Position numbers and translations under genes: made by a program. A DNA stretch of 64,000 nt from Candidatus Dormiibacterota bacterium (GTDB lineage Bacteria; Chloroflexota; Dormibacteria; Aeolococcales; Bog-877): contig DATLRN010000010.1 of assembly GCA_035534695.1 (NCBI GenBank), positions 21,333 to 85,332 of the forward strand, in the 5' to 3' direction. Shown one piece after another: positions 1 to 59,689 of this stretch; the stretch's first letter is position 1, and every line of letters starts with the position of its first letter. A model generated the notes under the pieces. That model saw only the letters and a program-made list of their open reading frames with translations, had not been told where the DNA came from and ran no database searches.

Positions 1-674
1 CTCCGAAAACTCAAGCCGCTTTGCTCGAGGGGATGCAGGAGCGGCAGGTCACTATCGAAGGCCACACCATGGTCTTGCCTCGGCCATTCTTGGTCATGGC
101 CACGCAGAACCCGATCGAGTATGAAGGGACCTACCCTCTGCCTGAGGCTCAGCTCGACCGTTTTCTGCTGCGGGCCAGCGTCGGGTATCCCGATCCAGCC
201 GACGAGGAGCGCATGGTGCGCGAGCGCCACCTCCGTCAGCACGATGAGGTGCGCCTCACCCCAGTTCTTGACGGGCCAACGCTGCTCGCCTGCCAAGCGG
301 CCGTCGAGGGAGTACTGGTCACGGACGACCTCTTCCATTACATCGTTCAGCTTGTGGGGGCGACACGGCAGAGCCCACGCGTGCTGGTCGGGGCCAGCCC
401 GCGGGGGACGCTTGCGCTGCTTCGTCTTTCCCGTGCCCGCGCCGCTCTGATGGGCCGAGACTTCGTCGTTCCGGACGACATTCAGGCGGTGGCGGTACCA
501 GCATTGGCGCATAGACTCACTCTCCGCCCGGAGCTGTGGGCGCAGCGCATACGAGCGGCCGACGTCGTCCTGGAGTGCCTCAAGACCGTTCCTGTGCCAC
601 CCACCCTGCCCCCAGAGATGATGAGGTCGCTGGCAATAGCGGCAGAGGGCGGAGAGTCCCCGAGGCAGGAATGA
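1..674 (+). CDS. MoxR-like AAA+ ATPase, C-terminal part (N-terminus outside window)
   Basis: The reading frame is open to the window edge. FLVMATQNPIEYEGTYPLPEAQLDRF and the following lid region are typical of MoxR/AAA_3. The stop overlaps the next start (ATGA at 671-674). Confidence 0.85.
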   Translation, partial: PKTQAALLEGMQERQVTIEGHTMVLPRPFLVMATQNPIEYEGTYPLPEAQLDRFLLRASVGYPDPADEERMVRERHLRQHDEVRLTPVLDGPTLLACQAAVEGVLVTDDLFHYIVQLVGATRQSPRVLVGASPRGTLALLRLSRARAALMGRDFVVPDDIQAVAVPALAHRLTLRPELWAQRIRAADVVLECLKTVPVPPTLPPEMMRSLAIAAEGGESPRQE

Positions 675-2035
675 GCCGGCCCGCCTCGTCAGCACGAGGC
701 CGATCTTCGAGCGGTGACTTTTCGCAGGTGGGTTGGCCAGCACCAGATGGCCGCGTGGCCTTCGTCAGCCAGCCTACCGCTCAATTGGGCGGCTTGCTCT
801 TCCTGGTCGCCTCGGGTTGTCTAGGCGCCTTGGCTCTTGGGCTGCCTGCCTTGGCAGCGGTCGTGGCGCCGATGGGGCTGTGGCTGCTCTGGGGCCTGAT
901 GGCCGCGGGCCAGACGAGCTGCCAGGTAAGCCTGGTTCTGGACCGCGATCGGGCGGTGGAAGGAGAAGTCGTAGAGCTCACCGTGGTTGTCCAACGCGCG
1001 CGATCGTTCCAGCGCGTGCTCTGCAGCGTATCCCTACCACCGGGCCTCACCGCCGATCCACCTCCTGCTCGTCTGGCAATGGCGCCGAACCGGAGTGGGA
1101 CAGCTTCCTCCACCCTCTCAATCCGCTGCGGCCAATGGGGAATCCACCGGATCGATCCCTGCTTGGTGGTCGCCCGCAATGCATTCGGCATCTCTCAAGC
1201 GTGGGGAAGGAGCCTCAACTCGGTCGAAGTTAATGTCTATCCAGCCGCGCCACGCCTTAGTGGCGGCGTAAGACCTTGGGCAACCCAAGTGTATGTGGGC
1301 GAAGAGAGGGCTCGAGAGCGAGGCCAGGGGTTTGAATTCGCCGACATACGCCAGTACCAGCCCGGGGACCAGACGCGGCGCATCAACTGGACGGTGACAG
1401 CGCGGAGGTCTGAGCCGTACGTCAACTTGCAGCACCCAGAGCGCAATGTGGACATCGTCCTCCTTGTCGACGCCTTCACCGACCTGCAGCTGGGGAGCAA
1501 CAGCACGCTGGCATGGGCTGGGAGGGCTGCAGCGGCACTGGCTGAGCTTCATCTCGCGCGCCGAGATCGGGTCGGTCTGCTCTCATATGGAGGAGTACTG
1601 CGGTCGCTGCCACCGGGCTCAGGAACCACTCATCTCTATCGGTTCCTGGACTCTCTGATCGAGACCGAGGTGGTATCGAGCTTCGAGCGTCCTACCCTGA
1701 ATCGGCTACCACCGCGGTCATTGCCGCCCCAAGCTCTGGTGATCGCGTTCACACCCCTGGTGGATCCGCGGATGATCAAGGTGCTTCTGGAGCTGCATGG
1801 CCGGGGATGCGATCTGGCCGTAGTCGAGATCGACCCGGAGCGATTTACCTCTTGGGGTACGGGCACCGGCGAAGATGCCAGCCGACGGATTTGGCGGCTG
1901 GTCCGTTCAGCCGCGCGCCGCGACATTTGGCGCTCTGGGGTGCCACTGGTTCGCTGGGACACCTCCGACCCGCTCGATGCCGCGCTTGTTCAAATCAATC
2001 AAATGAGGCATGGGCGATGGCGCGTCCGGGCCTGA
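671..2035 (+). CDS. DUF58 family protein (vWA-like partner of MoxR)
   Basis: ATG 671 overlaps the MoxR stop. FEFADIRQYQPGDQTRRINW and NVDIVLLVDAF are DUF58 hallmarks. The N-terminus is hydrophobic. The longer track start at 536 would overlap MoxR and is rejected. Confidence 0.8.
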   Translation: MSRPASSARGRSSSGDFSQVGWPAPDGRVAFVSQPTAQLGGLLFLVASGCLGALALGLPALAAVVAPMGLWLLWGLMAAGQTSCQVSLVLDRDRAVEGEVVELTVVVQRARSFQRVLCSVSLPPGLTADPPPARLAMAPNRSGTASSTLSIRCGQWGIHRIDPCLVVARNAFGISQAWGRSLNSVEVNVYPAAPRLSGGVRPWATQVYVGEERARERGQGFEFADIRQYQPGDQTRRINWTVTARRSEPYVNLQHPERNVDIVLLVDAFTDLQLGSNSTLAWAGRAAAALAELHLARRDRVGLLSYGGVLRSLPPGSGTTHLYRFLDSLIETEVVSSFERPTLNRLPPRSLPPQALVIAFTPLVDPRMIKVLLELHGRGCDLAVVEIDPERFTSWGTGTGEDASRRIWRLVRSAARRDIWRSGVPLVRWDTSDPLDAALVQINQMRHGRWRVRA

Positions 2036-3126
2036 TCCCGCAACTGACCGTCGGCAGTCTGGCCGTGGCCGTCACCGGTCTCGTCGCCGTGCAGATCCTC
2101 AACCTTGGTCCGCTCCTTCCACAGATCGCTCTGACCGGCGGAGTGGGCGCTCTCGTCGCGGCGGCCCTAGCCGTGGGCCTAAGGAGACCACGACTGGTTT
2201 CCGTGGCTGGAGTTGGGCTTGTGCTCGCGTATGCGCTTGCTGTCGTGCAAAGGCCGGACTCTTCCGTCGCAGCCGCCTCAGCACCTGTCATTGCGGGCGG
2301 AATCTTCCTCAGCACTCAGTTGGGCTGGTGGGCGACAGAGCTACGTACAACAGCTCGAGAATCCGCGGTGGACCTCACCCGCCGGGGGGCTCAGCTCGGA
2401 GCCAGCGCGGTAGCCATCGGAGTTATCGCTGAAGTCATCTGGCAGGCCGGGCGTATTCATTTAGGTCAGGGTCTGCAGTTCATGCTCCTCGGTCTCTTGG
2501 CGGCCATCGGACTTGTAGCTCTATTTTTGGGTGTAGTCACTCGTCGGCGCTATGCGAGGAATCAGCTCCTGAGTGACCAACCCGCCCTTCAACCGCGTTC
2601 TGCTGATGGGCATTCCGGCCTCGTTTCAACCCCGAAGCGATTCGGCAGGCTCGTTGCTCCAGCCGACGCCACATCATCACGAGTCGCGCACAATCGAGTC
2701 GCCTTACGGACAATGATTGCAGCGATTCTGCTCCTGACGGATGCCGCAGTCACCGCGGTGGACCTTCACTACTCGGGAGCGAAGAATGCCGCTCCCGGCA
2801 TCGCCCTTGGGCTCATCGTGGCCGGAGCAATAGTTTTGGCTTGGCTGGGACTGAGTCTGGGAGCACTCGTGCGACCTGTTGCCGATTTAGAGGAGCGCCC
2901 ACTCACCCACAAGCCACCGCCGCCCGCCGATCTTGGCAGCCTGGGTGTGATTAGATCACTGACTCGGCGCGCTTGGAGGACGGGACGGTGCGACGCCGAA
3001 TTCGGCACGTACCTGGTATCGCTTGGCGACCGACTGGCAGGCGAACATGAGATGGAGACGGTCCCACGATCAGTAGCCGACATCGGGGCTCTGCTAGCAG
3101 ACTTGGAGCGCGCGGCCGATGCTTGA
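2017..3126 (+). CDS. polytopic membrane protein, unknown function
   Basis: An in-frame ATG at 2017 sits just before the DUF58 stop. There are many hydrophobic segments (LAVAVTGLVAVQIL, VGLVLAYALAVV, LLGLLAAIGLVALFLGVV). GC3 is high. Confidence 0.55.
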   Translation: MARPGLIPQLTVGSLAVAVTGLVAVQILNLGPLLPQIALTGGVGALVAAALAVGLRRPRLVSVAGVGLVLAYALAVVQRPDSSVAAASAPVIAGGIFLSTQLGWWATELRTTARESAVDLTRRGAQLGASAVAIGVIAEVIWQAGRIHLGQGLQFMLLGLLAAIGLVALFLGVVTRRRYARNQLLSDQPALQPRSADGHSGLVSTPKRFGRLVAPADATSSRVAHNRVALRTMIAAILLLTDAAVTAVDLHYSGAKNAAPGIALGLIVAGAIVLAWLGLSLGALVRPVADLEERPLTHKPPPPADLGSLGVIRSLTRRAWRTGRCDAEFGTYLVSLGDRLAGEHEMETVPRSVADIGALLADLERAADA

Positions 3127-3799
3127 CTCACCCCGGTGGGCAGCGCGATCGATATTCTCGGTCATCGTACTGAGTCTGGTTGCGGGTTCTCTAGTTGCCC
3201 TTGTGGTGACCATGAGCACTTCGCGAGTCGGGACAATCAAGTTGCCGGAGAATAGCCTCGCCCGCTCCGTCGGCATCGGCCCAGGGCATCCAGGGGGTTT
3301 CTTGACCCCAGCGTGTCACGCGGCGAATGCGCGATGCCGGCGAGATATCGGCTCCGCCCGGGCGTCGGGCACCTCGGTACCATCGTGGGAACTCGCGATC
3401 GCCGGCTTGCTTGCTGCTGGCGCGGCCGGCGTCCTCTTGAAGACGCGGCGCACACAGCTGAGTGACCCCAGCCAAGTCAGCTCCAGTCTTGAATCATCGC
3501 CCAGGACTCGGCGAACGCCGGGCAACCCGAGGGAGATGGTGCTGGCGGCCTTCGCCGATGTCGAGGAACGCCTCACGAGCCGCGGGATTGCTAGAGAGAC
3601 ATGGGAGGCTCCGGAAAACTACCTGGCGCGGGCTGTACCGGGCAACACCCGCGCCGGATCCCCAGCTGGCAAATTGGCCCGACTTTATGCCCTGGCGCGT
3701 TATTCCCGGCATCCGATCGACAGGTCTTCGGCCACACAGGCCGAGGAGGCAGCGGCGGAGTTGAGCGACCACTTCGATCCGCCCTCCGAGGTTACATAA
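3119..3799 (+). CDS. membrane-anchored DUF4129-like protein, copy 1
   Basis: An N-terminal TM segment and a second TM (WELAIAGLLAAGAAGVLL). The C-terminal block REMVLAAFADVEERLTSRGIARETWEAPENY...LARLYALARYSRHP resembles DUF4129, which is found with MoxR/DUF58/transglutaminase loci. Confidence 0.65.
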   Translation: MLDSPRWAARSIFSVIVLSLVAGSLVALVVTMSTSRVGTIKLPENSLARSVGIGPGHPGGFLTPACHAANARCRRDIGSARASGTSVPSWELAIAGLLAAGAAGVLLKTRRTQLSDPSQVSSSLESSPRTRRTPGNPREMVLAAFADVEERLTSRGIARETWEAPENYLARAVPGNTRAGSPAGKLARLYALARYSRHPIDRSSATQAEEAAAELSDHFDPPSEVT

Positions 3800-3878
3800 A
3801 AGGTGCGCCGACTTACTGAGGCCGAGGAACCCAGCGTCGACCTAGCGCCTCTGCTGGACGCCGTCGAGCGGATCCAGG

Positions 3879-4550
3879 ATGAGTAATCCTCGCACACGTC
3901 TCGGGCAGTCGATGCCCTGGCTCATCGTGCTAAGTCTGGTCGCGACTTCTCTAGTTACCCTTGTTGTGATCATGAGCACTTCCCGAATCGGGACGATCAG
4001 GTTGCCCGAGCATAGACATACCGTCGTCCACATCCGCAAGAGGTCCCCAGGCGACGGCCACCTACCTTGTGACGCGGTCGGTGCCCAATGCCGTCGTGCT
4101 GTCACTCCATCCCGGGGCAGGAGCACTCCGGTGCCGCAGTGGGAACTCGCGCTCGCCGGCTTGCTTGCTGCAGGCGCGGTCGGCGTCCTCTGGAAGACGC
4201 GCCGCACACAGCTGAGTGACGCCAGCGACGCCGGCACCAGTCCTGAGTCATCGCCCAAGGCTCGCCGAACGCCGGCTAACCCCAGGGAGATCGTGCTGGC
4301 GGCCTTTGCCGATATCGAAGAACGCCTCACGAGCCGCGGGATTGCTAGCGAGACTTGGGAGGCACCGGAGAGCTACCCGGGTAGGGCGATACCGGACAGC
4401 GGACACTCCAGTCGCGCTGCTCACACACTGGCGCGCTTGTACGCACTGGCGCGCTACTCACATCACTCCATTGACACGGTCGCTGCGACCCAGGCTCTTG
4501 CTGCGTCGACTGAGCTGGCCTCCAGGTTGAGCACAGGCTCTAGCGTCTGA
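3879..4550 (+). CDS. membrane-anchored DUF4129-like protein, copy 2 (paralog of 3119..3799)
   Basis: It has the same architecture and long blocks identical to copy 1 (KTRRTQLSD, VLAAFAD.EERLTSRGIA.ETWEAPE, LARLYALARYS). Confidence 0.65.
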   Translation: MSNPRTRLGQSMPWLIVLSLVATSLVTLVVIMSTSRIGTIRLPEHRHTVVHIRKRSPGDGHLPCDAVGAQCRRAVTPSRGRSTPVPQWELALAGLLAAGAVGVLWKTRRTQLSDASDAGTSPESSPKARRTPANPREIVLAAFADIEERLTSRGIASETWEAPESYPGRAIPDSGHSSRAAHTLARLYALARYSHHSIDTVAATQALAASTELASRLSTGSSV

Positions 4551-5187: not shown

Positions 5188-6288
5188 TCAGCTACCGGCG
5201 CCGTCTGCGGTAGCGAGCTCCAAGTAGGCTGCCCGTTCTTGCTCACTCAACGGGGAGCTTCCGGCGGCGAGAACCCTGACGCGCAGGAAGAGGTCTCCCC
5301 CTGCTGCTGCCGCCTTGAGGGCGGGGATGCCCTTGCCCGCCACGCGCAGCGTTCTTCCCGGTGGACAGTTCTCGGGAATCGTCAACTCCAGTTTTCCCGC
5401 CGGCCCGGTGGTCACGACTTTGCCCCCCAGGGCGGCGCGGTAATCACGCACCGGTAAGTCCTGATAAACATTGCGGCCCTTGACCTCAGTACCGGTCGGC
5501 AGCTTGAGCCGGACCTTGAGGTAGAGATCGCCGCGCTTGCCGTCGCCCACTCCGCTGGCGCCCTCGCCGGCCACGCGGATCCTCGAGCCCTCGGTCACCC
5601 CCTTGGGGATCGTCACCTTGAGATTCCGTCGTCGGTACTGACGGCCGGAGCCGGAGCAAGCCGGACAGGCCTTGACCCCGACCTTGGTCGCGGTTCCGCC
5701 GCCACCGCTGGCTTCAGTCACCCGGCCGCTGCCGCCACAGGCGGGGCAGCTCTCGACGATGGAGACCTGCATGGTCCGGTCCCCGCCCTGCATGGCCTCG
5801 GCGAGGCTCACCTCGAGTTGGTCTTCGCTGTCGGCCCCCTTCTTGGCGGCGAGGTTCTCCCGCCGGAGTTGCTCCATCTGGGCTTCAATCCAGGGATCGT
5901 TGGGGTCGCTACCGCGGCCGCTAAAGAAGGTCTCGAAGAAGTCGCTGAACCCGCCGAATCGGGCCCCGGCTCGATCCGCCGCCCGCTGGGCGGTCTCCCG
6001 AGCACGAGTTCCGGCGTCGGCGAAGGGCTGACCGTGCTCGCGACGGAAGGCCTCGGCCCTTTCGATCTGCTCCCAGTCCGACCCCAAGCGATCGTATTTG
6101 GAGCGTTTCTCGGGGTCCTTGAGAACCTCGTAGGCCTCGTTGACGCGCTTGAATCGCTCCGTTGCCTTGGGATCCTTGTTGACGTCGGGATGAAGCTCCC
6201 GGGCCAGCTTGCGATAGCGGGCACGGACTTCCTTGTCCGTGGCCGTCCGGGGAACGCCTAGCGTTGCGTAGTAGTCGCGGAACTCCAC
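5188..6288 (-). CDS. J-domain chaperone (DnaJ/CbpA-like)
   Basis: The N-terminus DYYATLGVPRTATDKEVRARYRKLARELHPDVNK contains the HPD motif. Only two CxxCxGxG motifs are present (CPACGGSG, CPACSGSG), followed by DnaJ C-terminal beta-domains. Confidence 0.85.
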   Translation of the reverse strand: MEFRDYYATLGVPRTATDKEVRARYRKLARELHPDVNKDPKATERFKRVNEAYEVLKDPEKRSKYDRLGSDWEQIERAEAFRREHGQPFADAGTRARETAQRAADRAGARFGGFSDFFETFFSGRGSDPNDPWIEAQMEQLRRENLAAKKGADSEDQLEVSLAEAMQGGDRTMQVSIVESCPACGGSGRVTEASGGGGTATKVGVKACPACSGSGRQYRRRNLKVTIPKGVTEGSRIRVAGEGASGVGDGKRGDLYLKVRLKLPTGTEVKGRNVYQDLPVRDYRAALGGKVVTTGPAGKLELTIPENCPPGRTLRVAGKGIPALKAAAAGGDLFLRVRVLAAGSSPLSEQERAAYLELATADGAGS

Positions 6289-6315
6289 AGCTTCAAGGTA
6301 CCGTCTCGGCCCCGC

Positions 6316-7575
6316 TCACGAAACGCTTGTTTCCGGGCCAGGCTCCTCTAGCTGGGATCGGAGCTCGACGATGGCGGCCGCGAGATGGGGCAGGAGGGAG
6401 CTATCGGGAGCGCAACACGTTCCCTCGAATAGAAGGCGGGCCAACTCCTTCCCCGGTCGGGACGTGGACTGGATGACTAGTCCAACCTCACCCGGGGATG
6501 GTCCCCCCAAACCCATCTCCCCAGTGGCGTGGAAATGCCCGTCCTGGGTCAGAGTTCCCCGAGAGGTCGCCGGAGCTGGGTCGGAGCGCCGTTCGCCCAG
6601 TTGATAGAGGATGACCTGGGACCAGCGGCACTCCAAGGTCTGGCTGCTGATCTCTCCGATTCCGAAGCTGGCCAGGTGCTCATCTAGAAGGCCCGGGCCG
6701 CCGCTGTCGCGGGCGGTGAGGCTGAAGAGAGGCACCGATGCCACCAGCCTGGGGTTGATCTCGATGCACCAGATCCTTCCCTCGGTGCCCACCACCAGGT
6801 CCAAGCCAAAGATCCCTCGGTGGCCCAGCCTCTGGAGCCAGTGCGCGGCCTTGAAAGCCAGTTCCTGCACACGTGAGGTTTGAGGCACCGGCTGGCCGTA
6901 GTCGTTGCCGCAGGAACCCAGCGGATGAGGAGTCAGGGTATCGATGCCAGTCAGTTGCAGGCACGCCGGACCGACCACCAGGCTGTCCTCTTTAACAACC
7001 CCGGTCACGGTCACCGGAACCCCCAGGACTCGCTCGGCGATCCGGCAGGTTCGCCCGGCAAACTGCCGGAGGAGAAGGGCGAGCTGGTCTTCAGTCTCGG
7101 CCAGATAGGTCTGTTCGCCGGAGAAGCCTCGCGCCAGTTGAAAGATGACGGGCAGCTTCAGATCACCGGCAGCGGACTGTAGGTCGGCACCCGCGACACC
7201 TGTCTTGGTGGCTGGGATGGGTAGCTCCGCGGCGGGGGCACTGCGGCTGAAGTAGCTCTTGTTCTCGATCCGACGCGCGATCAAGGCGGGCGAGTTGGCC
7301 ACGATGACACCGACTTCTTGGGCCACTTGCTCCACTTGAGCCGAGCTCTTCCACACCACGATGGGGTCCGGTTGCTGGCGCAGAAGGCCCTGAACTCTGG
7401 GATCGGCGAGGAGTGCCGCTGCCGAGGCAGGACCGGGTACTTGAACCCGGGCCCAACCAGGCCTCCCATCGCGGGCAAGCCCGCAATCCTCGGCACAGAT
7501 GGCTCTGAGCCCGGCTGCTAGAACGGGCAGGGGATCGGGACCTATAAAGGTGACGCCTGCATTGCTGGACTTCAT
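6316..7575 (-). CDS. ATP-grasp family ligase, unknown substrate
   Basis: The C-terminal core HRGIFGLDLVVGTEGRIWCIEINPRL is typical of an ATP-grasp fold. The start overlaps the upstream PLP gene stop (ATGA at 7572-7575). Confidence 0.7.
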   Translation of the reverse strand: MKSSNAGVTFIGPDPLPVLAAGLRAICAEDCGLARDGRPGWARVQVPGPASAAALLADPRVQGLLRQQPDPIVVWKSSAQVEQVAQEVGVIVANSPALIARRIENKSYFSRSAPAAELPIPATKTGVAGADLQSAAGDLKLPVIFQLARGFSGEQTYLAETEDQLALLLRQFAGRTCRIAERVLGVPVTVTGVVKEDSLVVGPACLQLTGIDTLTPHPLGSCGNDYGQPVPQTSRVQELAFKAAHWLQRLGHRGIFGLDLVVGTEGRIWCIEINPRLVASVPLFSLTARDSGGPGLLDEHLASFGIGEISSQTLECRWSQVILYQLGERRSDPAPATSRGTLTQDGHFHATGEMGLGGPSPGEVGLVIQSTSRPGKELARLLFEGTCCAPDSSLLPHLAAAIVELRSQLEEPGPETSVS

Positions 7576-8660
7576 GGCGAGCCCGGTTTGGTGAAGGCGG
7601 CCCCTTCGAGAAGGCGATCAAGCTCCTCCTCCGTGTTGGCCGTCGGGAGTGGAGGATCGCCGGAGTGCTGCCTCGGTTCTTGATCGAGTTGCGACTCGTC
7701 TCCAGTCAGCACCGCCACCCACCGGCCCTCCGCCACTGGCGGGGCCGAGGCGGCCGCTTGCCTCATCGCCGCCAGGGTGGCCAGACCTTCCCAGGATGTC
7801 CGCACGCCGTGGCGGGCGGCTACCTCCCGAACTTCTTCAGCTTCTCTGGCGCCGACACGCCAACCCCGCCCGCCGCTGCGGCGAACCTCCCGTCGCAGAG
7901 CCGGCGCCCGCCGCGAGCGGTGGGTGCCGAGCTCACCCGGGAGCGACTCCTCCCGCAGTTGCTGGTGACTCGAGGGGTACCAGGGCCGGGTCAGCTCTCC
8001 GCCGGGCGCGCCCTCCACCACGTGCAGCGCCGGGCGCTGCCCCGGGGCCAGCAGCTGCTCCATGCCCTGGGCGATACCCAGGGCGCAGGCCCCACTGCTG
8101 GAGAAGACGAAGACTGCCGCCAGAGGCTCTTCCTGGACCAGCTCCGCCGCTATCCCCCGGTAGGCGTTGGGGGCGAGCAGGTTGACGGAGCCACGCAGGT
8201 CGGAGAGGCCCCAGTCGCGTACGCCATGGTGCAGAAGACCGACCGGACGGTCGCTGAGTACGGTCAGTTGCTGATAGATCTCAAGCCGTTGCAGCTTGAG
8301 CCGAGGCGTCCGTGGTGAGACCAGGCTCAACATCCGGAGGCCAGCCAAGGAGGCGTATGCCGCCGCCGCGATGGCGGCGTTGCCGGAAGAGGAGATGACC
8401 GCCTGACGGCCACCTGAAGCGAGCAGGACGGAGCAGAGCAAGCTCAGAGAACGCGCCTTGTGCGAGCCCGTTGGGGAGAGGTCTTCGCGCTTGAGCATCA
8501 GGTTGGGAATGCCGAGCTCGGATCCCAGCTCGGCAGCTGCCGCCAACGGCGTCATGCCCTCTCCGAGTGAGAGCTGAGATGCGGCCGGTAGACTGACGCC
8601 GAAGAGTCGGGCGTGGATCCACTGCCCCTGGGGGCCGTCAGCCCCTTCAGCGCCAGGCAT
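7572..8660 (-). CDS. PLP-dependent fold-type II enzyme (threonine synthase / cysteine synthase-like)
   Basis: LMLKREDLSPTGSHKARS carries the PLP lysine motif, and ISSSGNAA is the glycine-rich phosphate loop region. The layout is threonine-synthase-like. Confidence 0.75.
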   Translation of the reverse strand: MPGAEGADGPQGQWIHARLFGVSLPAASQLSLGEGMTPLAAAAELGSELGIPNLMLKREDLSPTGSHKARSLSLLCSVLLASGGRQAVISSSGNAAIAAAAYASLAGLRMLSLVSPRTPRLKLQRLEIYQQLTVLSDRPVGLLHHGVRDWGLSDLRGSVNLLAPNAYRGIAAELVQEEPLAAVFVFSSSGACALGIAQGMEQLLAPGQRPALHVVEGAPGGELTRPWYPSSHQQLREESLPGELGTHRSRRAPALRREVRRSGGRGWRVGAREAEEVREVAARHGVRTSWEGLATLAAMRQAAASAPPVAEGRWVAVLTGDESQLDQEPRQHSGDPPLPTANTEEELDRLLEGAAFTKPGSP

Positions 8661-8675
8661 TAATGGAGGTCTCGC

Positions 8676-8849
8676 GTGAGCACGATCGGCGCCGTCGCCA
8701 AGAACTGCCCCGACTGCGGGACGGCCCTCGACCTCGCCGACGTGGCGGAGATCGGCGACCTCGTCGACTGTCCCAATTGCGGAGCCACCTTCGAACTGGT
8801 CGGACTCAACCCCCTCACTCTGGCCCCATTCGAGGACGAGGAGAAGTAG
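8676..8849 (+). CDS. LysW-like zinc-ribbon amino-group carrier protein paralog (57 aa, not in ORF track)
   Basis: GTG 8676 is preceded by GGAGG (8665-8669). The translation is VSTIGAVAKNCPDCGTALDLADVAEIGDLVDCPNCGATFELVGLNPLTLAPFEDEEK. The CPxC-17 aa-CxxC spacing is identical to the canonical LysW at 59690, and an acidic tail is present. 50 of 57 codons end in G/C. Confidence 0.7.
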   Translation: MSTIGAVAKNCPDCGTALDLADVAEIGDLVDCPNCGATFELVGLNPLTLAPFEDEEK

Positions 8850-10368
8850 CAGCCCTTACCGCCTGCCGGAAACCACCCTGGCGGTAATGGGCGGTGAAGA
8901 AGCCAGGGCAGGCGGGAGAGAGAAGGATCGTGTCTCCCGGCTGGGCCAGCTCGGTGGCAAGGCTGACCGCCTCTTGCAGCGTTCCCAGCCGACTCACCAG
9001 GTCCTCGTGGCCGGCAGTGCTCACCTCCTGAGCCAGCCGGTCAGAGCCTTTCCCGGGAAGCAGCAGCAGCCGCCCCACACTCGCGCCGACCATCTTTGAG
9101 AGCTCACTGAAGTCAATGCCCTTGTCCTCGCCGCCGGCGATCAGGATGCAAGGTCGCCCCAGCCCCATAACTGCCGCCACCGTGGACTGAGGTGTGGTGC
9201 TGGAGAGGTCGTCGACGTAGTCGACACCTCGGTGCTGACGCACCAGCTCAGTGCGATGGCGAAGCGGCCGAAAGCTCTCGACGGCCTGGGCCGCCTTGGC
9301 CAGCTGGTCCGGCTCCAGAGGGGCGAGCACGGCCAGCACCGTGAGCGCCGCCCGCACATTACTCAGATTGTGCCGACCCACCAAGGGGACGCTCGCGGCG
9401 GCCATGACTGCGTGCGAGGTTCCCTGCCAGCGCAGTCGGAGCAGGCCCTCCTCCTCGAAGGCGCCATCCAGACCTGCAAGCTGTTCCAGTCCCCGGGCGA
9501 AGCGCAACTGACGAACCTCTGGACGGAGATCGCCACCGGCCAGACTTTGAGGATCGTCGCCGTTGCGGATCGCCACCTCGCAACCAGGGAGTTCAAAGAT
9601 TCGCCGCTTGGCAGCGACGTAGCCGGCCAGACCCTGGTGCTCGTCGAGGTGATTGGGGGTGATGTTGGTCAGGCAGCCTACCCGGGGAGCTCGCTCCATC
9701 TGGAGCAGCTGGCGGTTGCTGATCTCCAGGACCAGACAGCCCGTGCCATCGTCGCCGGCCACCTCGACCAGGGCCTGGCGGTCGTGCCGGTCGTTGCCGG
9801 CCAGCCAAACCTTGGGGTAGAGACCGCTCTGAGCCACCAGCGCCGCGACCAGGGAGCTGGTCGTCGACTTGCCATGGGTTCCGGTCACCCCCACCACCTC
9901 GCCCCGGGCGAGGTCAAGGTACGCCTGGATCAAGGAGTAAAACGGGTGGCCCCGCTCCTTCAACTGCTGCAGTGGGGCATTGGCCGCAGCCAGGAACCAG
10001 GCCTGGGTGGGGATGATCAGGGCCGAGGTCTCTATTCCCTTGAGGTAGTCGCCCCCCAGCTGCAGTGAGCGCAGTCCGGTGAGCAGTTCCTCAAGACGCT
10101 GGTGGCGCGCATCACGGTCCATCCCAGCGTGGGCCAGGTGGTGGGAGCGGCGCAGGCTCTCCAGGTCCGGCTGCTGGTCGTGGCCGACCAGATTGGTGAA
10201 GCCGGATGCCAGGAGATACCGGGCCATCTCACCGCCCTCGACGCTGGCGACCCCCACCAGGTCGATGCGGCTTTGGCCAAGCTCGGCTAGTCGGGCGGGC
10301 ACCCGAAGTGCGGCATGACCAGACGGCCCAGGGGAGGTAGCCGCCGCGGCAGGGGCCGGGATCTCCAT
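8815..10368 (-). CDS. Mur ligase family protein, MurD-like paralog
   Basis: It has the P-loop GVTGTHGKSTT, the MurD-like GGEDKGIDF, and the C-terminal ILLSPACPGFFTAHYRQGGF. ATG 10368 is chosen because the longer track ORF would overlap the upstream NlpC/P60 gene. Confidence 0.8.
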   Translation of the reverse strand: MEIPAPAAAATSPGPSGHAALRVPARLAELGQSRIDLVGVASVEGGEMARYLLASGFTNLVGHDQQPDLESLRRSHHLAHAGMDRDARHQRLEELLTGLRSLQLGGDYLKGIETSALIIPTQAWFLAAANAPLQQLKERGHPFYSLIQAYLDLARGEVVGVTGTHGKSTTSSLVAALVAQSGLYPKVWLAGNDRHDRQALVEVAGDDGTGCLVLEISNRQLLQMERAPRVGCLTNITPNHLDEHQGLAGYVAAKRRIFELPGCEVAIRNGDDPQSLAGGDLRPEVRQLRFARGLEQLAGLDGAFEEEGLLRLRWQGTSHAVMAAASVPLVGRHNLSNVRAALTVLAVLAPLEPDQLAKAAQAVESFRPLRHRTELVRQHRGVDYVDDLSSTTPQSTVAAVMGLGRPCILIAGGEDKGIDFSELSKMVGASVGRLLLLPGKGSDRLAQEVSTAGHEDLVSRLGTLQEAVSLATELAQPGDTILLSPACPGFFTAHYRQGGFRQAVRAATSPRPRMGPE

Positions 10369-10378
10369 CCGAGCTAGG

Positions 10379-11260
10379 TTAGCGGGGGGGAGCGATTGCT
10401 CCCGGCACCCGGCGAACGGTGAGCACCTGATAGCGCTGGCGGAAGTCGTTGAGGGGTTCGCGACGCACCTCGTTGCACTCGCTGCAGGCATGAACCACAT
10501 CGTCATCGGCTAGATAGAGGGCGACGTGGCTGGTCCGTTTCGGACCGCGGTGGACGGCGCAGATCAGATCTGCCTCACGCAACCCGGCGATCTGCACCCG
10601 CTCCCCGATCTTTCGCTGGGCCCGGCTGTTGCGGGGCAGGAGCACCCCGGCCTTGAGGTAGGCGCGCCAGCTGAGGCCGGAGCAGTCGATCCCCTGGCCC
10701 CCGGTGCCGCCGAAGACGTAGGGGCGCCCAAGCAGGTCGAGCGCTGCCTGCCGCACCACCTGCGGGTCCCAACCGGAGGCGGGCACGTTGGCCGCCCCGG
10801 CCACTCCCTCCGCAATAGCTGGTCCCCAGCGGTAGGGCGAGCCGGGGCGCACCCAGCCTACCGCCTCCCCGGGGGCCCTGACCAGGTAATGGCCCTGCCG
10901 GACGGCGAGCAGCCCGGCGGCGGGGTCTCCCGGGAGCAGCTGGGTGGTGAGCTCCTGTCTCTCCGAGGTCTCATCGGGATGGCGCCGCCAGATGTCCAGC
11001 GTTCCCCCTGCGGGATAGAGGGCGACACGGGTGCGCCGGGTGGCCAGTACCAGGAGTCGGCAGTTGGCTCCCGGCCAGAGTTCGGTCACCCGTCGGCGCA
11101 ACTCCAGTGCCTGGGCCGGCAGTGCCACCGTGCCCCGGATCCCATCAACGGTCAACCGGACTTCAATCAGGGCCTCGCCATAGCGAGCCGTTGCCTGGCG
11201 GCGAAGACCATCAAGGGCGTCTTCCAGCGCCACCGAGAGCGCGCCCGGGGCAGAGTTCAA
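10379..11260 (-). CDS. NlpC/P60 (C40) cysteine peptidase, no signal peptide
   Basis: GRPYVFGGTGGQGIDCSGLSWRAY...SHVALYL provides the catalytic Cys/His core. A TTG start at 11260 overlaps the upstream stop (TTGA). An alternative GTG lies at 11290. The N-terminus is not hydrophobic. Confidence 0.8.
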   Translation of the reverse strand: MNSAPGALSVALEDALDGLRRQATARYGEALIEVRLTVDGIRGTVALPAQALELRRRVTELWPGANCRLLVLATRRTRVALYPAGGTLDIWRRHPDETSERQELTTQLLPGDPAAGLLAVRQGHYLVRAPGEAVGWVRPGSPYRWGPAIAEGVAGAANVPASGWDPQVVRQAALDLLGRPYVFGGTGGQGIDCSGLSWRAYLKAGVLLPRNSRAQRKIGERVQIAGLREADLICAVHRGPKRTSHVALYLADDDVVHACSECNEVRREPLNDFRQRYQVLTVRRVPGAIAPPR

Positions 11261-12135
11261 CGTTCGGCCTGCCCAAAGAGTCGCCACCACCCGGTACGGT
11301 GCACCTCACCTTTGAGCTGAGCTGGATGGAGTTGTAGAGATTGGCCATCAGTGCTGAGCAAAATTGGGCTCAAAGGGAAGCTCGCCAGCCGGTAAAGTCG
11401 GCGTACCAACTCGGTCATCTTGTCGTGGCTGGCGGCGTCGCCAATGCCAGCCACCACCATGGCCCGGTCCGGTGCCGCCAGGGCGGCACGGCCGTCGCCC
11501 AGCTCGGCGAGCCTCTCCAAGAAGGCGGGCACCAGCAGAAGGCTGCTTGCAAAGAGGATGTCGTCGGTGAAGAGCCAGGTTCTCTGCTCCGGTTCCTTCT
11601 TCAGGACCGTGCTCCAGCGGGTCAAGCGGAGGGCGGTGTTGCGATCGGCGAGTTCCACCAGGTTCTCCTCCGCGAGACCGCCCATCTCCGCCTCGGCGCG
11701 GGAAACTCCGCGCATGGCATCTCCGGGCAGCGCCTCGGCGACAAACGCCAGCAGGCCTCCGGGGAGCTCTCGGGTGGCGAGCTCGGCATAGCGACTGAAT
11801 CGGCGAATGCTGCGCCCAGCGCGGACGCACCAGACCAAGGCGCCCGGATCCGGAGTCGGAGTGGAGAGCTCAGGACGGTCCTCGGCAGCGCTCAGCCGGG
11901 GCGCGGCCGCGCTGACGAAATGCGAGATGCGCTCCGGCATTGACACCTCAGGCCGGCTCGCTTCCGCGAAGAGCGACTCCAAAGAGAGCGCTACCTGGGC
12001 TCGATCCTTGTGGGCCAGGACCCCAAAATCGTCGTCGCGGGCACTGAAATCCCACCCTCGGTAGCGAGCCCGAAACTGGGTTAGGAGTCGCTCCTGGAAC
12101 AGTCGGCGCTCGCTGTCCAAGCGTATTGTCGGCAT
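11257..12135 (-). CDS. hypothetical protein
   Basis: The ORF is 292 aa with high GC3, and it is tightly packed between the vWA and NlpC/P60 genes. No family was recognised. Confidence 0.6.
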   Translation of the reverse strand: MPTIRLDSERRLFQERLLTQFRARYRGWDFSARDDDFGVLAHKDRAQVALSLESLFAEASRPEVSMPERISHFVSAAAPRLSAAEDRPELSTPTPDPGALVWCVRAGRSIRRFSRYAELATRELPGGLLAFVAEALPGDAMRGVSRAEAEMGGLAEENLVELADRNTALRLTRWSTVLKKEPEQRTWLFTDDILFASSLLLVPAFLERLAELGDGRAALAAPDRAMVVAGIGDAASHDKMTELVRRLYRLASFPLSPILLSTDGQSLQLHPAQLKGEVHRTGWWRLFGQAER

Positions 12136-12139
12136 CGGT

Positions 12140-14128
12140 CTAGTTTGACCGCGAGCGCGAGGCTACGTAGTCCACTAGCACGTAGTCGCCGAGCCGGTCG
12201 GGGCTGACGAAGAAGACGCGACCTCGGTTCTGGCGAGTGAGTTGCTGGATGAACTGGACCAGGTATTGGTTGGTCTCGAGCATGAAGGTGTTAATTACAA
12301 TTCCCTCCCTGGTGCAGTGACGCACCTCCTGAAGGGTCTTGCGGAATGTCTCGGGTAAGGGCGGATACATGAAGACGGCATGGGTGCCTTCCATGTGGGC
12401 TGTGGGCTCGCCATCGCTGACGATGATTATCTGGCGATTCCCGGCCCGATGGCGATGCAGCAGACGGCGCGCCAGCATCAGTCCGTGCTGCATGTTGGTG
12501 CCGTAGACGTACTCGCTGTAGGAGAGTTGGGCCAGCATGGCCGGACTGATTTCCCGGGCGTAGTCGGAAAATCCGACGACGTACAGAGTGTCCCGGGGAT
12601 ACTGGGTGCGGATCAATGAATTCAGCGCCAATGCCATTTTCTTGGCGGCGTAGAAGTATCCCCGAAGCGGCATGCTGCGGCTCATGTCGAGCATCAGCAC
12701 GGTGTTGGTCTGCACGCTGCGCTCGGATTCCCGCACCTCGAAGTCGTCGACGTGTAGGCGAAGCGGCCGGCTTCCGTCGCTGTGGCGGACTGCGTTCATG
12801 AGGGTCTTTTCTACGTCCAGGTTGAAGGGATCCCCGAACTGGTAGGGCTTGCTGTCATCACCGACCTCGGGGCCGGTCCCCAGGCTGCCCTGGGGATGAC
12901 TGCCGAAGCCATCCGCAGAGAGGTGCTGGAAGATGTCCGCCAGCGCCTTCTGGCCGATCTTGCGCACTCCCTGCGGGGTCAGCTCCAGCCCCTCGCCATT
13001 GCGCCGGAGCTGTCCTTTCGCCTCCAGTTCTCTGACCAGGGCCTGGATCTTGAGCAGATTGGCGGCCGAGTCCGGTCCCAGACTCTCCGCCATCTGCTCC
13101 AGCAGCTCCGGGGGTACATCGGCGCCGGTGTACGCCTGGCGGAGGCCCCTCTCCAGAGAATCGAGCTGTTGCAGTTCGCCCATCACGTCGAGGGCGCCTG
13201 GGAGATCGAGTTCCTCGCCGCCGAAGAAGGGAAAACGCGAACCGGAAGATGCCTGAGGGGACATCTGGCCGAGCAGGCGTGAGAGCCGGGCCAGCTGGTC
13301 TTGGAGTTCTTCGTCGCTGAGGGCGGCGCGCATGATCTCCTGAAGCTGCTCGCGCATTTCCGGCGACGCTGATTCCAGCAGTGAGTCGAGCTCGGCCATC
13401 TGCTGGCGCAGCTGGTCTAAAAAGGAATCCAGATCCTCGGGATGGTCGGGGAAGTAGCTGCCCCACTTCTCCATGAACTCCTCGTATCGAGGTGGTTCGC
13501 CCCGCTGCTGCCGCTCCAGCATCTGGTTGAGGTCGCGGATCATTTCGCGCAGCTGTCCGATGTCCTGCGTCCCCAGGTTCTGGACCGCCCTACCGAGGTC
13601 CTGGAAGTGACGCTCGACGAGGTTGCGGCGGAGCTCGCCCAGCAGCTCCTGAAAGTCCCGACCCGCCTCCTGGTCGAGGAACTCGTACTCCTGGAGCTGG
13701 CGGATGGCGGAACCCGCCTCCGGGGGCAGGGCGTCGAGCTGCTCCAGGCGGCTCCGGGTCAGTTTCTCCAGCAAGCGCTGGTGATCGCTGCCAGCCGCCT
13801 CGCGGGCGCGCTCCTGGAGGGTGGTGCGCTCCTTTTGGAGAATCCGGTCGAGCCGCTCCTCGATGTCCTTGAAGAGGCCATCCAGGTTGTAGCGCTCAAG
13901 CTTCTCTTGGCGCTGCTCGCGGACCTGGTCGAGGAGGTCTTCCAGGCCTCGTAGCTGGTTCCCTTGGCTGTCCCTGAAGCCCTGGCTCAGGAGGCGACGG
14001 AGGGCGGACTCGAAGTCCCAGCCGTGGAAGACATCCTCCGCCAGGCGCGAGAAGAGTTCCCCCGAGTCAGGAAGGTCACCCTCCTGACTGCCGTCCCAAC
14101 GGCTGTACAGCTGACGGGCCGCGGCCAT
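12140..14128 (-). CDS. von Willebrand factor A (vWA) domain protein with long acidic/coiled N-terminal region
   Basis: The C-terminal vWA domain has a MIDAS motif, VLMLDMSRSM...VVGFSDYA...IIIVSDGEPTAH. The N-terminal 400 aa are rich in E/L/Q repeats. Confidence 0.8.
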   Translation of the reverse strand: MAAARQLYSRWDGSQEGDLPDSGELFSRLAEDVFHGWDFESALRRLLSQGFRDSQGNQLRGLEDLLDQVREQRQEKLERYNLDGLFKDIEERLDRILQKERTTLQERAREAAGSDHQRLLEKLTRSRLEQLDALPPEAGSAIRQLQEYEFLDQEAGRDFQELLGELRRNLVERHFQDLGRAVQNLGTQDIGQLREMIRDLNQMLERQQRGEPPRYEEFMEKWGSYFPDHPEDLDSFLDQLRQQMAELDSLLESASPEMREQLQEIMRAALSDEELQDQLARLSRLLGQMSPQASSGSRFPFFGGEELDLPGALDVMGELQQLDSLERGLRQAYTGADVPPELLEQMAESLGPDSAANLLKIQALVRELEAKGQLRRNGEGLELTPQGVRKIGQKALADIFQHLSADGFGSHPQGSLGTGPEVGDDSKPYQFGDPFNLDVEKTLMNAVRHSDGSRPLRLHVDDFEVRESERSVQTNTVLMLDMSRSMPLRGYFYAAKKMALALNSLIRTQYPRDTLYVVGFSDYAREISPAMLAQLSYSEYVYGTNMQHGLMLARRLLHRHRAGNRQIIIVSDGEPTAHMEGTHAVFMYPPLPETFRKTLQEVRHCTREGIVINTFMLETNQYLVQFIQQLTRQNRGRVFFVSPDRLGDYVLVDYVASRSRSN

Positions 14129-14138
14129 TGCCGCTCGC

Positions 14139-15533
14139 CTAGCTTCCGTAGACGGTGGTGCCGTCCACCACTGTCTTGTTGAGGCGCTTGGAGAGGTGCA
14201 ATCCCTCCAGCACCAGTTCCAAGGCAGCTGCCACCGACCCAGGCTGCTGGGGCTCGTCGAGGTCGCTCAGGATCCGCTTCATCTCGGGGATGCCATCGGC
14301 CACCTGGAGGTAACGCTCGAGCGGCACCATCTCGCCGACTTCGATGGTTAGCCCTTCCTCGAAGCGGGCCAGCACCGGGGCGAACTCTTGCACCGCGAAG
14401 TGGCGGCGGAAGACGTTGGTGCAGGCGCTCCGCAGCAGCTTCTGGAGCAGGGCCTGATCCTCACCCTCCTCCCAGGTCTCCAGTTCCAGCTTGCCCAGGG
14501 TCGAGGCGGTGAGCGCGCCGAGGTCGCTCAGCCGGGGCACGGCCTCGGGCTCGGAGAGACTTATCGCCCGGCGAACCGCGTTGGCGCAGAGGCTCTCGAA
14601 ATTGGCGATCGAGAGCCTGACCGAGACTCCGGAACGTTGGTTGATCTGGGTAGTACGCCGGGCCAGTTGGGAAATCTCGGCGACCAGCTCCAGCATGTAT
14701 TGGGGCACGTGGAGGGGAATGCCCAGGCCCGAGAACTGATCACGTTCCTGTTCAACGATTTCGGCCTCCGCCTCCGGGGAACGCGGATAGTGGGTCCGGA
14801 TCTGGGCTCCGAAGCGGTCCTTGAGCGGGGTGATGATCCGACCCCGGTTGGTGTAGTCCTCCGGGTTGGCCGTGGCCACCACCAGCACGTCGAGCGGCAG
14901 ACGAACCTGGAAGCCGCGAATCTGGACGTCGCGCTCTTCCATGATGTTGAGTAATCCCACCTGAATCCGCTCGGCCAGGTCGGGAAGTTCGTTGATGGCA
15001 AAGATGCCCCGGTTGACCCGGGGCAGCAGGCCGTAGTGGATGGTCAGCTCGTCGGCCAGATAACGTCCTTCGGCCACCCGAATCGGGTCCACCTCGCCGA
15101 TCAGGTCGGCGATGGACGTGTCGGGGGTGGCCAGCTTTTCGCCGAAGCGCTCCTCCCGGCCGATCCAAGTTATCGGCGTTTGGTCTCCCAGCTCGGCGAC
15201 CAGGTCGCGACCGAGGCGGCTGATCGGCGCATAGGGATGGTCGTGCACCTCACTCCCACTAATCATCGGCACCGCTTCGTCCAGGAGTTGGGCCATGGCC
15301 CGGATCAGCCGCGACTTGGCCTGGCCCCGTTCCCCGAGGAAGACCATGTCCTGCCCAGCCAGCAGAGCATTCTCGATCTGGGGCAGCACCGTGTCCTGGT
15401 ACCCGACCAGACCCTGGAACCGCTCCCGGCCGTGGCGCAATGCCTCGATCAGGTTGTCCCGCAGCTCCTCCCGGACCGAGCGCATCCGGTACTCGCTGCC
15501 CCGAAGCTCACCAAGGGTGCTGGGGAGTGCCAT
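14139..15533 (-). CDS. AAA+ ATPase, Mg-chelatase ChlI/BchI-like
   Basis: It has the Walker A-like VFLGERGQAKSRL, the Walker B/sensor region GIFAINELPDL, and LLNIMEERDVQIRG...VLVVATANPEDY. It lies 10 bp upstream of its vWA partner. Confidence 0.8.
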   Translation of the reverse strand: MALPSTLGELRGSEYRMRSVREELRDNLIEALRHGRERFQGLVGYQDTVLPQIENALLAGQDMVFLGERGQAKSRLIRAMAQLLDEAVPMISGSEVHDHPYAPISRLGRDLVAELGDQTPITWIGREERFGEKLATPDTSIADLIGEVDPIRVAEGRYLADELTIHYGLLPRVNRGIFAINELPDLAERIQVGLLNIMEERDVQIRGFQVRLPLDVLVVATANPEDYTNRGRIITPLKDRFGAQIRTHYPRSPEAEAEIVEQERDQFSGLGIPLHVPQYMLELVAEISQLARRTTQINQRSGVSVRLSIANFESLCANAVRRAISLSEPEAVPRLSDLGALTASTLGKLELETWEEGEDQALLQKLLRSACTNVFRRHFAVQEFAPVLARFEEGLTIEVGEMVPLERYLQVADGIPEMKRILSDLDEPQQPGSVAAALELVLEGLHLSKRLNKTVVDGTTVYGS

Positions 15534-57640: not shown

Positions 57641-57959
57641 CGGCGGCGTGCGTGCGCCGCCGCTGGGGCGGCTCCTCGAAATCTGTCGCAACCGAGTGCA
57701 GCAAAACGGTGAGACGCGTTGGACTCTCTCCTCAAGCGGGGGTCGGCGGGCCGGCCCCCTCCCGAACTCAAGCGTCGTGTGCGGTTCGGTGTCCCATGGG
57801 GTCATGGCGGAATGGAGCACTATCGGGTCGGTCCAGACGTATGGTCGTTGGTAAGGTCTGAGGTGTGAACCAAGACGCAGGAGACAGTTGTGCCTACGAA
57901 TCAAAGCGCGCGACGGCGCCTGCCGCTCTGTTGAGCGGGCAGGCCGAGGCGGCATCCCT

Positions 57960-59162: not shown

Positions 59163-59262
59163 TCGGGAGGCCGTAGCCGTTTACCCGACGCGAGGCAGCT
59201 TGCGCCGTGCTTGCGTGCCCTGGTAAGGTCCGTGCCGACAACCGAATAGCAAAGGCGTAGAC

Positions 59263-59556: not shown

Positions 59557-59689
59557 AACGGGTCGGGAGGCGACGATGCGAAAGACGACCACCGGTGGGA
59601 CTCGGCGACCCAGAACTAGCAGTTTTGGTGCCGATATGGGATCGACGTCGAATCAGCCCGCGCTCATGTGCTCAATGGGGAGTGGCTGA

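Follow-up and report, generated by a model that had tools for sequence, protein, structure and literature searches.

A lysine-ending protein of the LysW fold appears to form part of a conserved five-gene cassette in uncultured bacteria

Amino-group carrier proteins (AmCPs) are known, as far as we are aware, only with a tail that ends in glutamate and only in company with enzymes of the LysX, LysZ, LysY, LysJ and LysK types, and they serve the lysine and arginine pathways and a few antibiotic pathways. In Streptomyces secondary-metabolite clusters of the DADH or vazabitide type, a LysW homolog has been recruited outside lysine synthesis, and these clusters keep both the LysX/Z/Y/J-type enzymes and the Glu-ending tail. 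Here we analyze a small gene at 8676..8849 (+ strand) of a 64,000-nt stretch of contig DATLRN010000010.1 (assembly GCA_035534695.1, Candidatus Dormiibacterota bacterium); this whole stretch is called the window below, and all coordinates follow its numbering. The predicted product resembles the LysW and ArgW carriers of Thermus, Sulfolobus and Thermococcus (PDB 3wwl, 5k2m and 3vpb) in its fold, its CxxC-17-CxxC ribbon and its flexible acidic tail, and, like them, it has an ATP-dependent amide ligase and an amide hydrolase as putative partners. However, the LysW tail ends in EDWGE, whereas the tail of the window protein ends in ...EEK, so that the glutamate gamma-carboxylate used for attachment is absent. 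Moreover, LysX (RimK-type), the LysZ kinase, the LysY reductase, the LysJ aminotransferase and the LysK M20 hydrolase are all without a match among its partners; neither the enzymes nor the Glu end of the Streptomyces clusters is retained. The comparisons presented below indicate that this carrier gene belongs to an undescribed and widely distributed module of five genes and is not a stray copy of lysW. No description of such a five-gene system was found in the literature on LysW/AmCP carriers and on the module enzymes, a coverage that did not take in one 2009 amidoligase survey.

The carrier gene encodes VSTIGAVAKNCPDCGTALDLADVAEIGDLVDCPNCGATFELVGLNPLTLAPFEDEEK (57 codons, GTG start, TAG stop), which reproduces exactly the translation given in a first-pass annotation of this DNA. 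The product is a 57-aa zinc ribbon with cysteines at C11, C14, C32 and C35 and an acidic tail that ends in ...PFEDEEK. A Shine-Dalgarno sequence, GGAGG, can be read at 8665..8669 (+), 6 nt 5′ of the GTG as had been noted, and five orthologous loci, whose start codons are GTG or TTG, have a GGAGG-like motif with the same spacing. Several other particulars of that annotation hold on recounting: 50 of the 57 codons end in G or C, the CPDC-17 residues-CPNC arrangement mirrors that of the canonical LysW at 59690..59878, the start lies 15 bp from the divergent start of a pyridoxal phosphate (PLP) enzyme gene (8660, - strand), and the carrier is the sole + strand gene inside a minus-strand block that extends over 5188..15533. 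The gene had also been called unannotated. This is true of the open reading frame (ORF) track used at that time but not of public data, in which gene callers predict the exact protein on 14 contigs and homologs are already labeled “lysine biosynthesis protein LysW” by NCBI and JGI.

A short ORF with a GTG start might be a chance open frame, since the genome has 65% GC and long spurious ORFs are frequent in such GC-rich DNA. As its last 35 nt are shared with another gene, its conservation might also be borrowed from that overlap with the Mur ligase gene or from the promoter region of the PLP enzyme gene. Four lines of evidence make this explanation negligible, as far as sequence can show. First, the protein matches the Pfam model PF21344 (Zn_ribbon_LysW) with 48.9 bits, the gathering cutoff being 27, and a profile of the carrier family finds in the PDB the LysW structures of Thermus (3wwl, E = 1.5e-14) and Thermococcus (5k2m, E = 3.6e-13). 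The AlphaFold model of the carrier (predicted local distance difference test, pLDDT, 78) has LysW chains as all six top PDB matches in Foldseek, with probabilities of 0.99-1.00, template modeling (TM) scores of 0.62-0.67 and identities of 30-49%. Second, nucleotide substitutions among 26 orthologous carrier genes are biased toward codon position 3 (5098, compared with 1890 at position 1 and 1660 at position 2). Third, non-overlapping operons also encode this protein and its tail. Fourth, no Rfam family matches the carrier region. The 26 homologs share 63-98% identity and keep the four cysteines and the terminal DEEK without exception, the named members among them being Candidatus Dormibacterota, and the frame is intact in every orthologous locus. 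In addition, CxxC-17-CxxC occurs in only 2 of the 989 stop-to-stop ORFs of at least 40 aa in the window, namely the carrier and the canonical lysW, and the carrier has 11 Asp/Glu residues against 2 Lys/Arg, an acidity like that of LysW. The sequence-based grounds on which the first-pass annotation would have given up its view thus do not apply, the profile match being significant and the cysteines and frame being kept. These results bear out the first-pass view of a LysW-like zinc-ribbon protein with a different tail, and they indicate that 8676..8849 is a genuine gene for a predicted acidic zinc ribbon of the LysW fold, evolving under purifying selection and conserved across Candidatus Dormibacterota.

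The gene had been described as wedged antisense between two operons. The antisense geometry is as described, but the two operons are not unrelated, in that the flanking genes for the PLP enzyme, an ATP-grasp ligase, a Mur ligase and an NlpC/P60 peptidase are conserved partners. Distant loci were reached via remote homologs of the ATP-grasp ligase, and a scan of GTDB species genomes with an ATP-grasp alignment gave 80 loci. Co-occurrence was then scored with local hidden Markov models for the five components in the 43 loci that have at least 5 kb of upstream flank, and all five components are present together in 35 of these 43. The five-gene loci span Dormibacterota, Anaerolineae/Caldilineae, Thermoleophilia/Gaiellales, CSSED10-310 and the Peribacteria of the candidate phyla radiation (CPR), and are also found in genomes labeled Rickettsiales, Deltaproteobacteria and proteobacterium, which are putatively proteobacterial. 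Every module match is a metagenome-assembled genome (MAG), the representative proteins with an EEK end that we looked up come from metagenomes only, and no cultured host was found among either. Thus, the carrier is conserved beside the same PLP, ATP-grasp and MurD-like genes in related genomes and, together with NlpC/P60, across phyla.

The order of the five genes differs among lineages. In Dormibacterota the layout is DnaJ <- ATP-grasp <- PLP enzyme / carrier -> / <- Mur ligase <- NlpC/P60, and it is kept down to 63% carrier identity. Co-directional operons are found elsewhere, with the order carrier, NlpC/P60, Mur ligase, PLP enzyme and ATP-grasp in one locus (L019) and the order NlpC/P60::Mur-ligase fusion, carrier, PLP enzyme and ATP-grasp in another (L020). 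Only in Dormibacterota and some CPR does the carrier gene run opposite to its partners, and this inversion accounts for the odd antisense geometry. The PLP enzyme gene adjoins the carrier gene in all lineages. Natural fusions join NlpC/P60 to the Mur ligase (five loci, Chloroflexota), the PLP enzyme to the ATP-grasp ligase (two loci, L026 and L072) and the ATP-grasp ligase to NlpC/P60 (two loci, L060 and L074), and taken together they link all four enzymes. No flanking family that could be a sixth component is common to three or more lineage groups, the immediate neighbors being unrelated genes. These patterns of conservation and fusion indicate that the carrier is a member of a conserved five-gene cassette that is widespread in many uncultured phyla.

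Four MAGs, labeled Verrucomicrobiia, Micrarchaeia archaeon, Micrarchaeaceae archaeon and Acidiferrales (loci L036, L047, L050 and L053), have an inverted carrier, the 292-aa protein described below (P292) and DnaJ. Their labels are probably wrong, because this layout is specific to Dormibacterota.

It is also evident that the carrier differs from LysW itself. As the first-pass annotation had stated, a canonical lysJ-W-X-Y-Z-K cluster is located at 57888..63786, which Pfam matches confirm, and no lysX/Y/Z/J/K gene lies beside the carrier, these enzymes being 50 kb away with a LysW of their own. That LysW passes the lysW equivalog model TIGR01206 with 56.5 bits, whereas the carrier stays below both the cutoff of this model (47.1 bits vs 53.2) and that of the archaeal LysW/ArgW model NF041070 (37.7 bits vs 75). 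The emphasis that had been placed on the FEDEEK tail proves well founded, as an EEK or Lys end is the hallmark of the family. Fifty carriers were taken from genome loci that represent at least seven phylum-level lineages; every one of them has a C-terminal Lys and all but one (49 of 50) terminate in EEK, the consensus of the tail being ...F/Y/W/L-E-D/E-E-E-K. When 1.84 billion representative proteins were searched exhaustively, 27 of the best 150 clusters (50% identity) had an EEK end and 12 a WGE end. Taking the sub-cutoff score, the Lys tail, the cluster counts and the acidity together, we consider the EEK-tailed proteins a large sister family of LysW, so that the carrier appears to have the LysW fold without being an ortholog of LysW.

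An ordinary second LysW or ArgW that serves the LysX/Z/Y/J/K enzymes at 57.9-63.8 kb, for example in arginine or ornithine synthesis as in Sulfolobus, would account for the PF21344 match, the LysW fold and the LysW name in public databases. It is nonetheless very unlikely, given the sub-cutoff equivalog score and a tail that ends in all members in lysine and not in the glutamate of EDWGE. Furthermore, the carrier accompanies a different enzyme set throughout the lineages sampled and never stands beside lysX/Y/Z/J/K; no kinase, reductase, aminotransferase or M20 hydrolase is present in any carrier locus examined, and the canonical cluster already owns a LysW. In view of their gene context, their tail and an equivalog score below threshold, the “LysW” names that EEK-tailed proteins carry in databases are probably over-annotations. 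Metabolic reconstructions for genomes of Dormibacterota, Chloroflexota and CPR will be led astray by such labels; the error can be corrected.

Some related observations concern the LysW-like proteins at large. The window carrier and the EEK-tailed proteins P0002-P0024, P0265, P0275 and P0278 are named ‘lysine biosynthesis protein LysW’ or ‘alpha-aminoadipate carrier protein LysW’ by NCBI and JGI. Ten representative proteins (P0233-P0238, P0241, P0251, P0279 and P0344) have two to nine LysW-like ribbons per chain and reach 626 aa, one of them (P0234) having two ribbons and a C-terminal IEEEK; these tandem or multi-ribbon proteins seem to be undescribed. A TraD/VirD4-like coupling protein (L030:2695-4551) includes a ‘CxxC-x17-CxxC’ domain (TIGR04272) with LysW-like cysteine spacing in an unrelated context. 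Within the canonical cluster of the window, a gap of ~530 bp (59163..59689) lies between the lysJ-like aminotransferase ORF, which ends at 59162, and lysW, which starts at 59690, the cluster being otherwise tight.

The last 11 codons of the carrier lie within a convergent overlap of 35 bp (8815..8849) with the 3′ end of the Mur ligase gene, whose stop codon is at 8815..8817, in agreement with the first-pass annotation. Of 26 Dormibacterota loci, 25 share this length of 35 nt, and the remaining one has 44 nt. On the Mur side it covers a non-conserved C-terminal extension (TSPRPR...), and this ‘TSPRPR’ is the antisense reading of the carrier ‘EDEEK*’; therefore, the two tails could constrain each other. 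The co-directional lineages without the overlap have the carrier tails YEEEEK, YEDEEK, FEEEEK and WEEEEK. The conserved sequence of the Mur ligase stops at ...GFRxxxRxxT in all lineages, and only the extension beyond this point overlaps in Dormibacterota. Inside the overlap, substitutions are most frequent at position 3 of the carrier codons (745, vs 273 and 302 at the other two positions); therefore, changes that are silent in the carrier and alter the Mur tail are tolerated. The carrier appears to be the constrained partner, because its tail is kept in the absence of the overlap, Mur conservation ends earlier and the bias is toward position 3. These comparisons indicate that the Lys-ending tail is a trait of the family and not an artifact of the overlap.

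The PLP enzyme (7572..8660, - strand, 362 aa) is threonine-synthase-like and of fold type II (PF00291, 122 bits), and its gene is divergent from the carrier gene. The profile of its family has ThrC structures as top PDB matches over the full length (E = 4.7e-30), and against the top NCBIfam ThrC model it scores 79.4 bits, far below the cutoff of 303. It lacks the phosphate-binding Arg of ThrC, the Arg of NPYR being replaced, and has a different invariant Arg in NLRPS. The other invariant motifs are GSHKDR, which is the PLP-lysine motif, and ISSSGN.

The ATP-grasp ligase (6316..7575, - strand, 419 aa, a PF02655 match) has a start that overlaps the stop of the PLP enzyme gene by 4 nt, and it shows no similarity to the LysX of the same window. 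The best PDB matches of its profile are carbamoyl phosphate synthetase (CPS) and the gamma-glutamyl ligase BesA, with RimK and tubulin tyrosine ligase only marginal (E of at least 0.4). Its AlphaFold model (pLDDT 94) retrieves PurK, PurD and biotin carboxylase in Foldseek with TM scores of about 0.6, a generic resemblance. The profile and the model thus place the enzyme in the PurK/PurD/biotin-carboxylase/CPS structural class and not in the LysX/RimK type. RimK acting on ribosomal protein S6 and tubulin tyrosine ligase also provide examples of an ATP-grasp ligase that works on the acidic C-terminal tail of a small protein, but they belong to other ATP-grasp subfamilies, and theirs is a regulatory modification that involves no PLP enzyme or Mur ligase.

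The third enzyme (8815..10368, - strand, 517 aa) is a MurD-derived ATP-dependent amide ligase with Mur_ligase_M (PF08245) and Mur_ligase_C (PF02875) domains, which NCBI names only “Mur ligase family protein”. Its score against the MurD equivalog TIGR01087 is 205.8 bits (cutoff 211.95), with an alignment that starts at model position 76, and the Peribacteria member passes this model (255.8 bits), yet from model position 95 only. Most canonical MurD matches carry PF21799, the MurD N-domain, but none of the module-type ligases listed does. The N-domain is not replaced, however: it is still a Rossmann domain of the MurD type, though diverged, in which the glycine loop has degenerated and ~50 aa are inserted. 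Aligned with E. coli MurD, the enzyme keeps the equivalents of K115, E157, H183, K198, N268, N271, R302, D317, T321 and K348, which comprise every invariant Mur residue plus T321 and K348 of MurD. At the positions that correspond to E. coli 182, 348, 414 and 416 the residues are N, K, P and F, with S at 319. A regular-expression scan of the positions connected with Glu chirality gave a patchy picture, and canonical MurDs vary there too; in published MurD/MurD2 mutants, chirality was not governed by the P and F residues (PMC8788868). In a neighbor-joining tree, the module ligases group together as a single clade within the MurDs, with moderate support (113/200 bootstraps). No second Mur ligase and no genes of the division and cell wall (dcw) cluster are present within the window, and none of the canonical MurDs among the homologs listed could be assigned to Dormibacterota.

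The fourth enzyme is an NlpC/P60 cysteine peptidase (10379..11233, - strand, 284 aa; PF00877, 68.5 bits vs a cutoff of 23), whose fusion partner is the Mur ligase in Anaerolineae and the ATP-grasp ligase in Peribacteria. Its Cys-His-His triad is intact (DCSG, SHVALY and VVHA). Its closest solved relatives include PDB 3h41, 3npf and 2hbw, which we take to be cytoplasmic murein-peptide gamma-D-Glu-diamino-acid endopeptidases of the YkfC or dipeptidyl-peptidase VI type. The peptidase is like these YkfC-type enzymes in sequence and in the triad, but its N-terminal domain of ~170 aa matches nothing. By eye, not by a predictor, there is no N-terminal signal sequence, so the peptidase is probably cytoplasmic. 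The joining of a ligase and an amidase has a precedent in the bifunctional glutathionylspermidine synthetase/amidase, a ligase fused to a papain-like amidase, which parallels the fusion of an amide ligase to an amidase of the NlpC/CHAP type in the module. With the Mur residues, the NlpC/P60 triad and the GSHKDR motif all kept, the cassette enzymes look active.

A link to the cell wall comes from the CPR. In a Shapirobacteria locus (L032) the gene order is ftsI, murE, murC-like, murA, mraY, a weak NlpC/P60-like ORF, carrier, PLP enzyme, ATP-grasp ligase, ftsW and murG, so that the module, here without a Mur ligase, fills the usual place of murD in the division and cell-wall cluster. A GH3 (NagZ-like) gene is located immediately upstream of the module in the co-directional locus L019. 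Because the enzyme families are of cell-wall types and the CPR module stands at the murD position, we infer, with less confidence than for the cassette itself, that the product is a building block of the peptidoglycan stem peptide made at or near the MurD step (position 2, D-Glu). If so, the module may mark an undescribed variant of an early and essential cell-wall step in phyla without cultured members.

Separately, CPR of the Parcubacteria and Moraniibacteriota type have a member of the ATP-grasp family of 471-487 aa directly upstream of ftsW, the usual place of murD (L021:201-1616, L030:5584-7047 and L031:46-1533; murG and murC follow in L021 and L031). No carrier, PLP enzyme or Mur ligase gene was found near the ATP-grasp gene in these three loci. 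This ATP-grasp protein might be a non-homologous replacement or a helper at the MurD step.

By likeness to LysW and other AmCPs, we infer that the ribbon is a carrier in the chemical sense as well. Our preferred reading is that the five genes include one for a carrier of the LysW style, with its terminal Lys serving as the handle in ligase, PLP-enzyme and peptidase steps, probably toward a peptidoglycan-related building block, and we give this reading as a whole a probability of roughly 55%. The acidic ribbon would dock on each enzyme successively, with the tail threaded into the active site. The handle would be the invariant terminal Lys, through its free alpha-carboxylate or its epsilon-amine, and not a Glu gamma-carboxylate, the attachment point in LysW. 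In the loading step, one of the ligases would link an amino acid to the carrier by an amide bond; the best guess is Glu, because the Glu-binding residues of MurD are kept while the acyl-substrate domain is diverged. The loaded group would next be transformed or extended by the PLP enzyme and the second ligase, and NlpC/P60 would hydrolyze the amide, freeing the product and regenerating the carrier. PLP enzymes of fold type II require a free alpha-amine, so that the loaded residue would have to be attached through one of its carboxylates to the Lys epsilon-amine, or else the PLP enzyme would use a free co-substrate. If this reading is true, the carrier principle has been reused for a second kind of chemistry by a large Lys-ending sister family with wholly different enzymes.

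A more specific version of this scheme is an ATP-driven, one-way conversion of L-Glu to D-Glu on the carrier, in which a ligase tethers Glu, or some other position-2 residue, to the terminal Lys, the PLP enzyme converts it and the Mur ligase and NlpC/P60 hand it on and release it. We offer this version only tentatively and regard it as improbable. A precedent for the cell-wall link in general, and a partial parallel to this version, exists in the MurD2/MurL system of Xanthomonas, where a MurD paralog and an ATP-using helper supply D-Glu by an alternative installation route and the helper MurL makes the L-to-D conversion unidirectional (PMC8788868). Both systems have a diverged MurD beside an ATP-consuming helper and a non-canonical MurD step, but MurD2/MurL works without a carrier protein, a PLP enzyme or a peptidase, and MurL does not belong to the ATP-grasp enzymes. 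If the specific version is true, the cassette would be an alternative to glutamate racemase with a housekeeping role in Dormibacterota and some CPR, the MurD/MurI step being partly or wholly replaced there.

Several points weigh against the preferred reading. The need of the PLP enzyme for a free alpha-amino group fits poorly with N-linked loading in the manner of LysW, and this enzyme is nearest to threonine synthase and not to racemases. The Mur ligase might be the housekeeping MurD, as its diverged N-domain still aligns to MurD in Anaerolineae and the clade that parts the module ligases from MurD is only moderately supported by the bootstrap value given above. In most phyla the cassette does not lie beside cell-wall genes. 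The Parcubacteria-type ATP-grasp protein has no carrier nearby, so this enzyme family can work carrier-free. Finally, the evidence consists of MAG and metagenome sequence throughout.

The carrier-free ATP-grasp family also bears on the possibility that the ribbon is a non-covalent subunit or regulator that binds the enzymes, and whose EEK tail may mimic the -Glu-Lys end of a stem peptide and so gate the Mur ligase or NlpC/P60. The tail indeed lacks the terminal Glu of LysW, and ...Glu-Lys-COOH would resemble the end of the UDP-MurNAc-tripeptide. We nevertheless find a purely regulatory role rather unlikely, because the flexible tail is conserved across phyla more strictly than most of the ribbon, as is typical of residues that enter an active site, and the LysW fold has no known role besides that of a carrier. 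In addition, two ATP-dependent amide ligases and an amidase are what a covalent cycle of loading and unloading needs.

The same set of two ligases and one peptidase would equally suit the load-and-release cycle of a scaffold-peptide pathway without any role in the cell wall, in which the encoded Lys would be modified on the carrier by the PLP enzyme and a ligase and cut off by NlpC/P60 as a small molecule, a ligase then recharging the tail with a new amino acid. Such a pathway would resemble pearlin-type peptides or a secondary-metabolite AmCP pathway. The invariance of the terminal Lys is consistent with it, since a pre-charged carrier would explain why the residue is genetically encoded, and so is a self-contained cassette with unrelated neighbors and a patchy spread, as in mobile biosynthetic clusters. 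Peptide scaffolds that undergo C-terminal extension before being processed have been reported (10.1101/2024.03.12.584671). Pearlins, for example those of the ammosamide pathway, would resemble the module in building on the C-terminus of a ribosomal peptide, where an amino acid is added, altered and set free; they depend on tRNA-dependent PEARL enzymes and unstructured peptides, whereas the module has a folded LysW-type ribbon with Mur and ATP-grasp ligases. We consider this explanation unlikely for three reasons. The alpha-amine of the encoded Lys is locked in a peptide bond, so that a fold-type-II PLP enzyme could not act on it directly; the cassette includes no oxidoreductase, methyltransferase, transporter or resistance gene; and its apparent universality in Dormibacterota and its dcw position in CPR suit a housekeeping function better.

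Other genes near the cassette in the window are of less certain connection to it. Directly upstream of the NlpC/P60 gene, a 292-aa protein without a Pfam or NCBIfam match is encoded at 11257..12135 (- strand); it is found in Dormibacterota loci only and is possibly a lineage-specific accessory or sixth component, its membership being uncertain. A DnaJ-type co-chaperone gene (5188..6288, - strand, with DnaJ and DnaJ_C matches) lies 27 nt downstream of the ATP-grasp gene. It follows the ATP-grasp gene in Dormibacterota loci and not in other phyla, and its membership in the cassette is likewise uncertain. Scans for sigma-70 promoters and intrinsic terminators around the carrier gene, which are uninformative for this phylum, gave none, RNA folding 3′ of its stop codon was not significant (z = -1.4), and Rfam and tRNA scans of the whole window gave no match. 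Directly upstream and on the same strand as the cassette enzymes, 12140..15533 (-) encodes an AAA/MoxR-like ATPase (464 aa) and a 662-aa VWA protein with domains of the Mb0984/Rv0959 type; this pair travels with the cassette in Dormibacterota and resembles the mycobacterial Rv0958/Rv0959. A second MoxR-type cluster, which consists of a MoxR AAA protein, a DUF58 protein, a 369-aa protein of unknown type and two DUF4129 proteins, occupies ~1..4550 (+ strand), upstream of the DnaJ gene.

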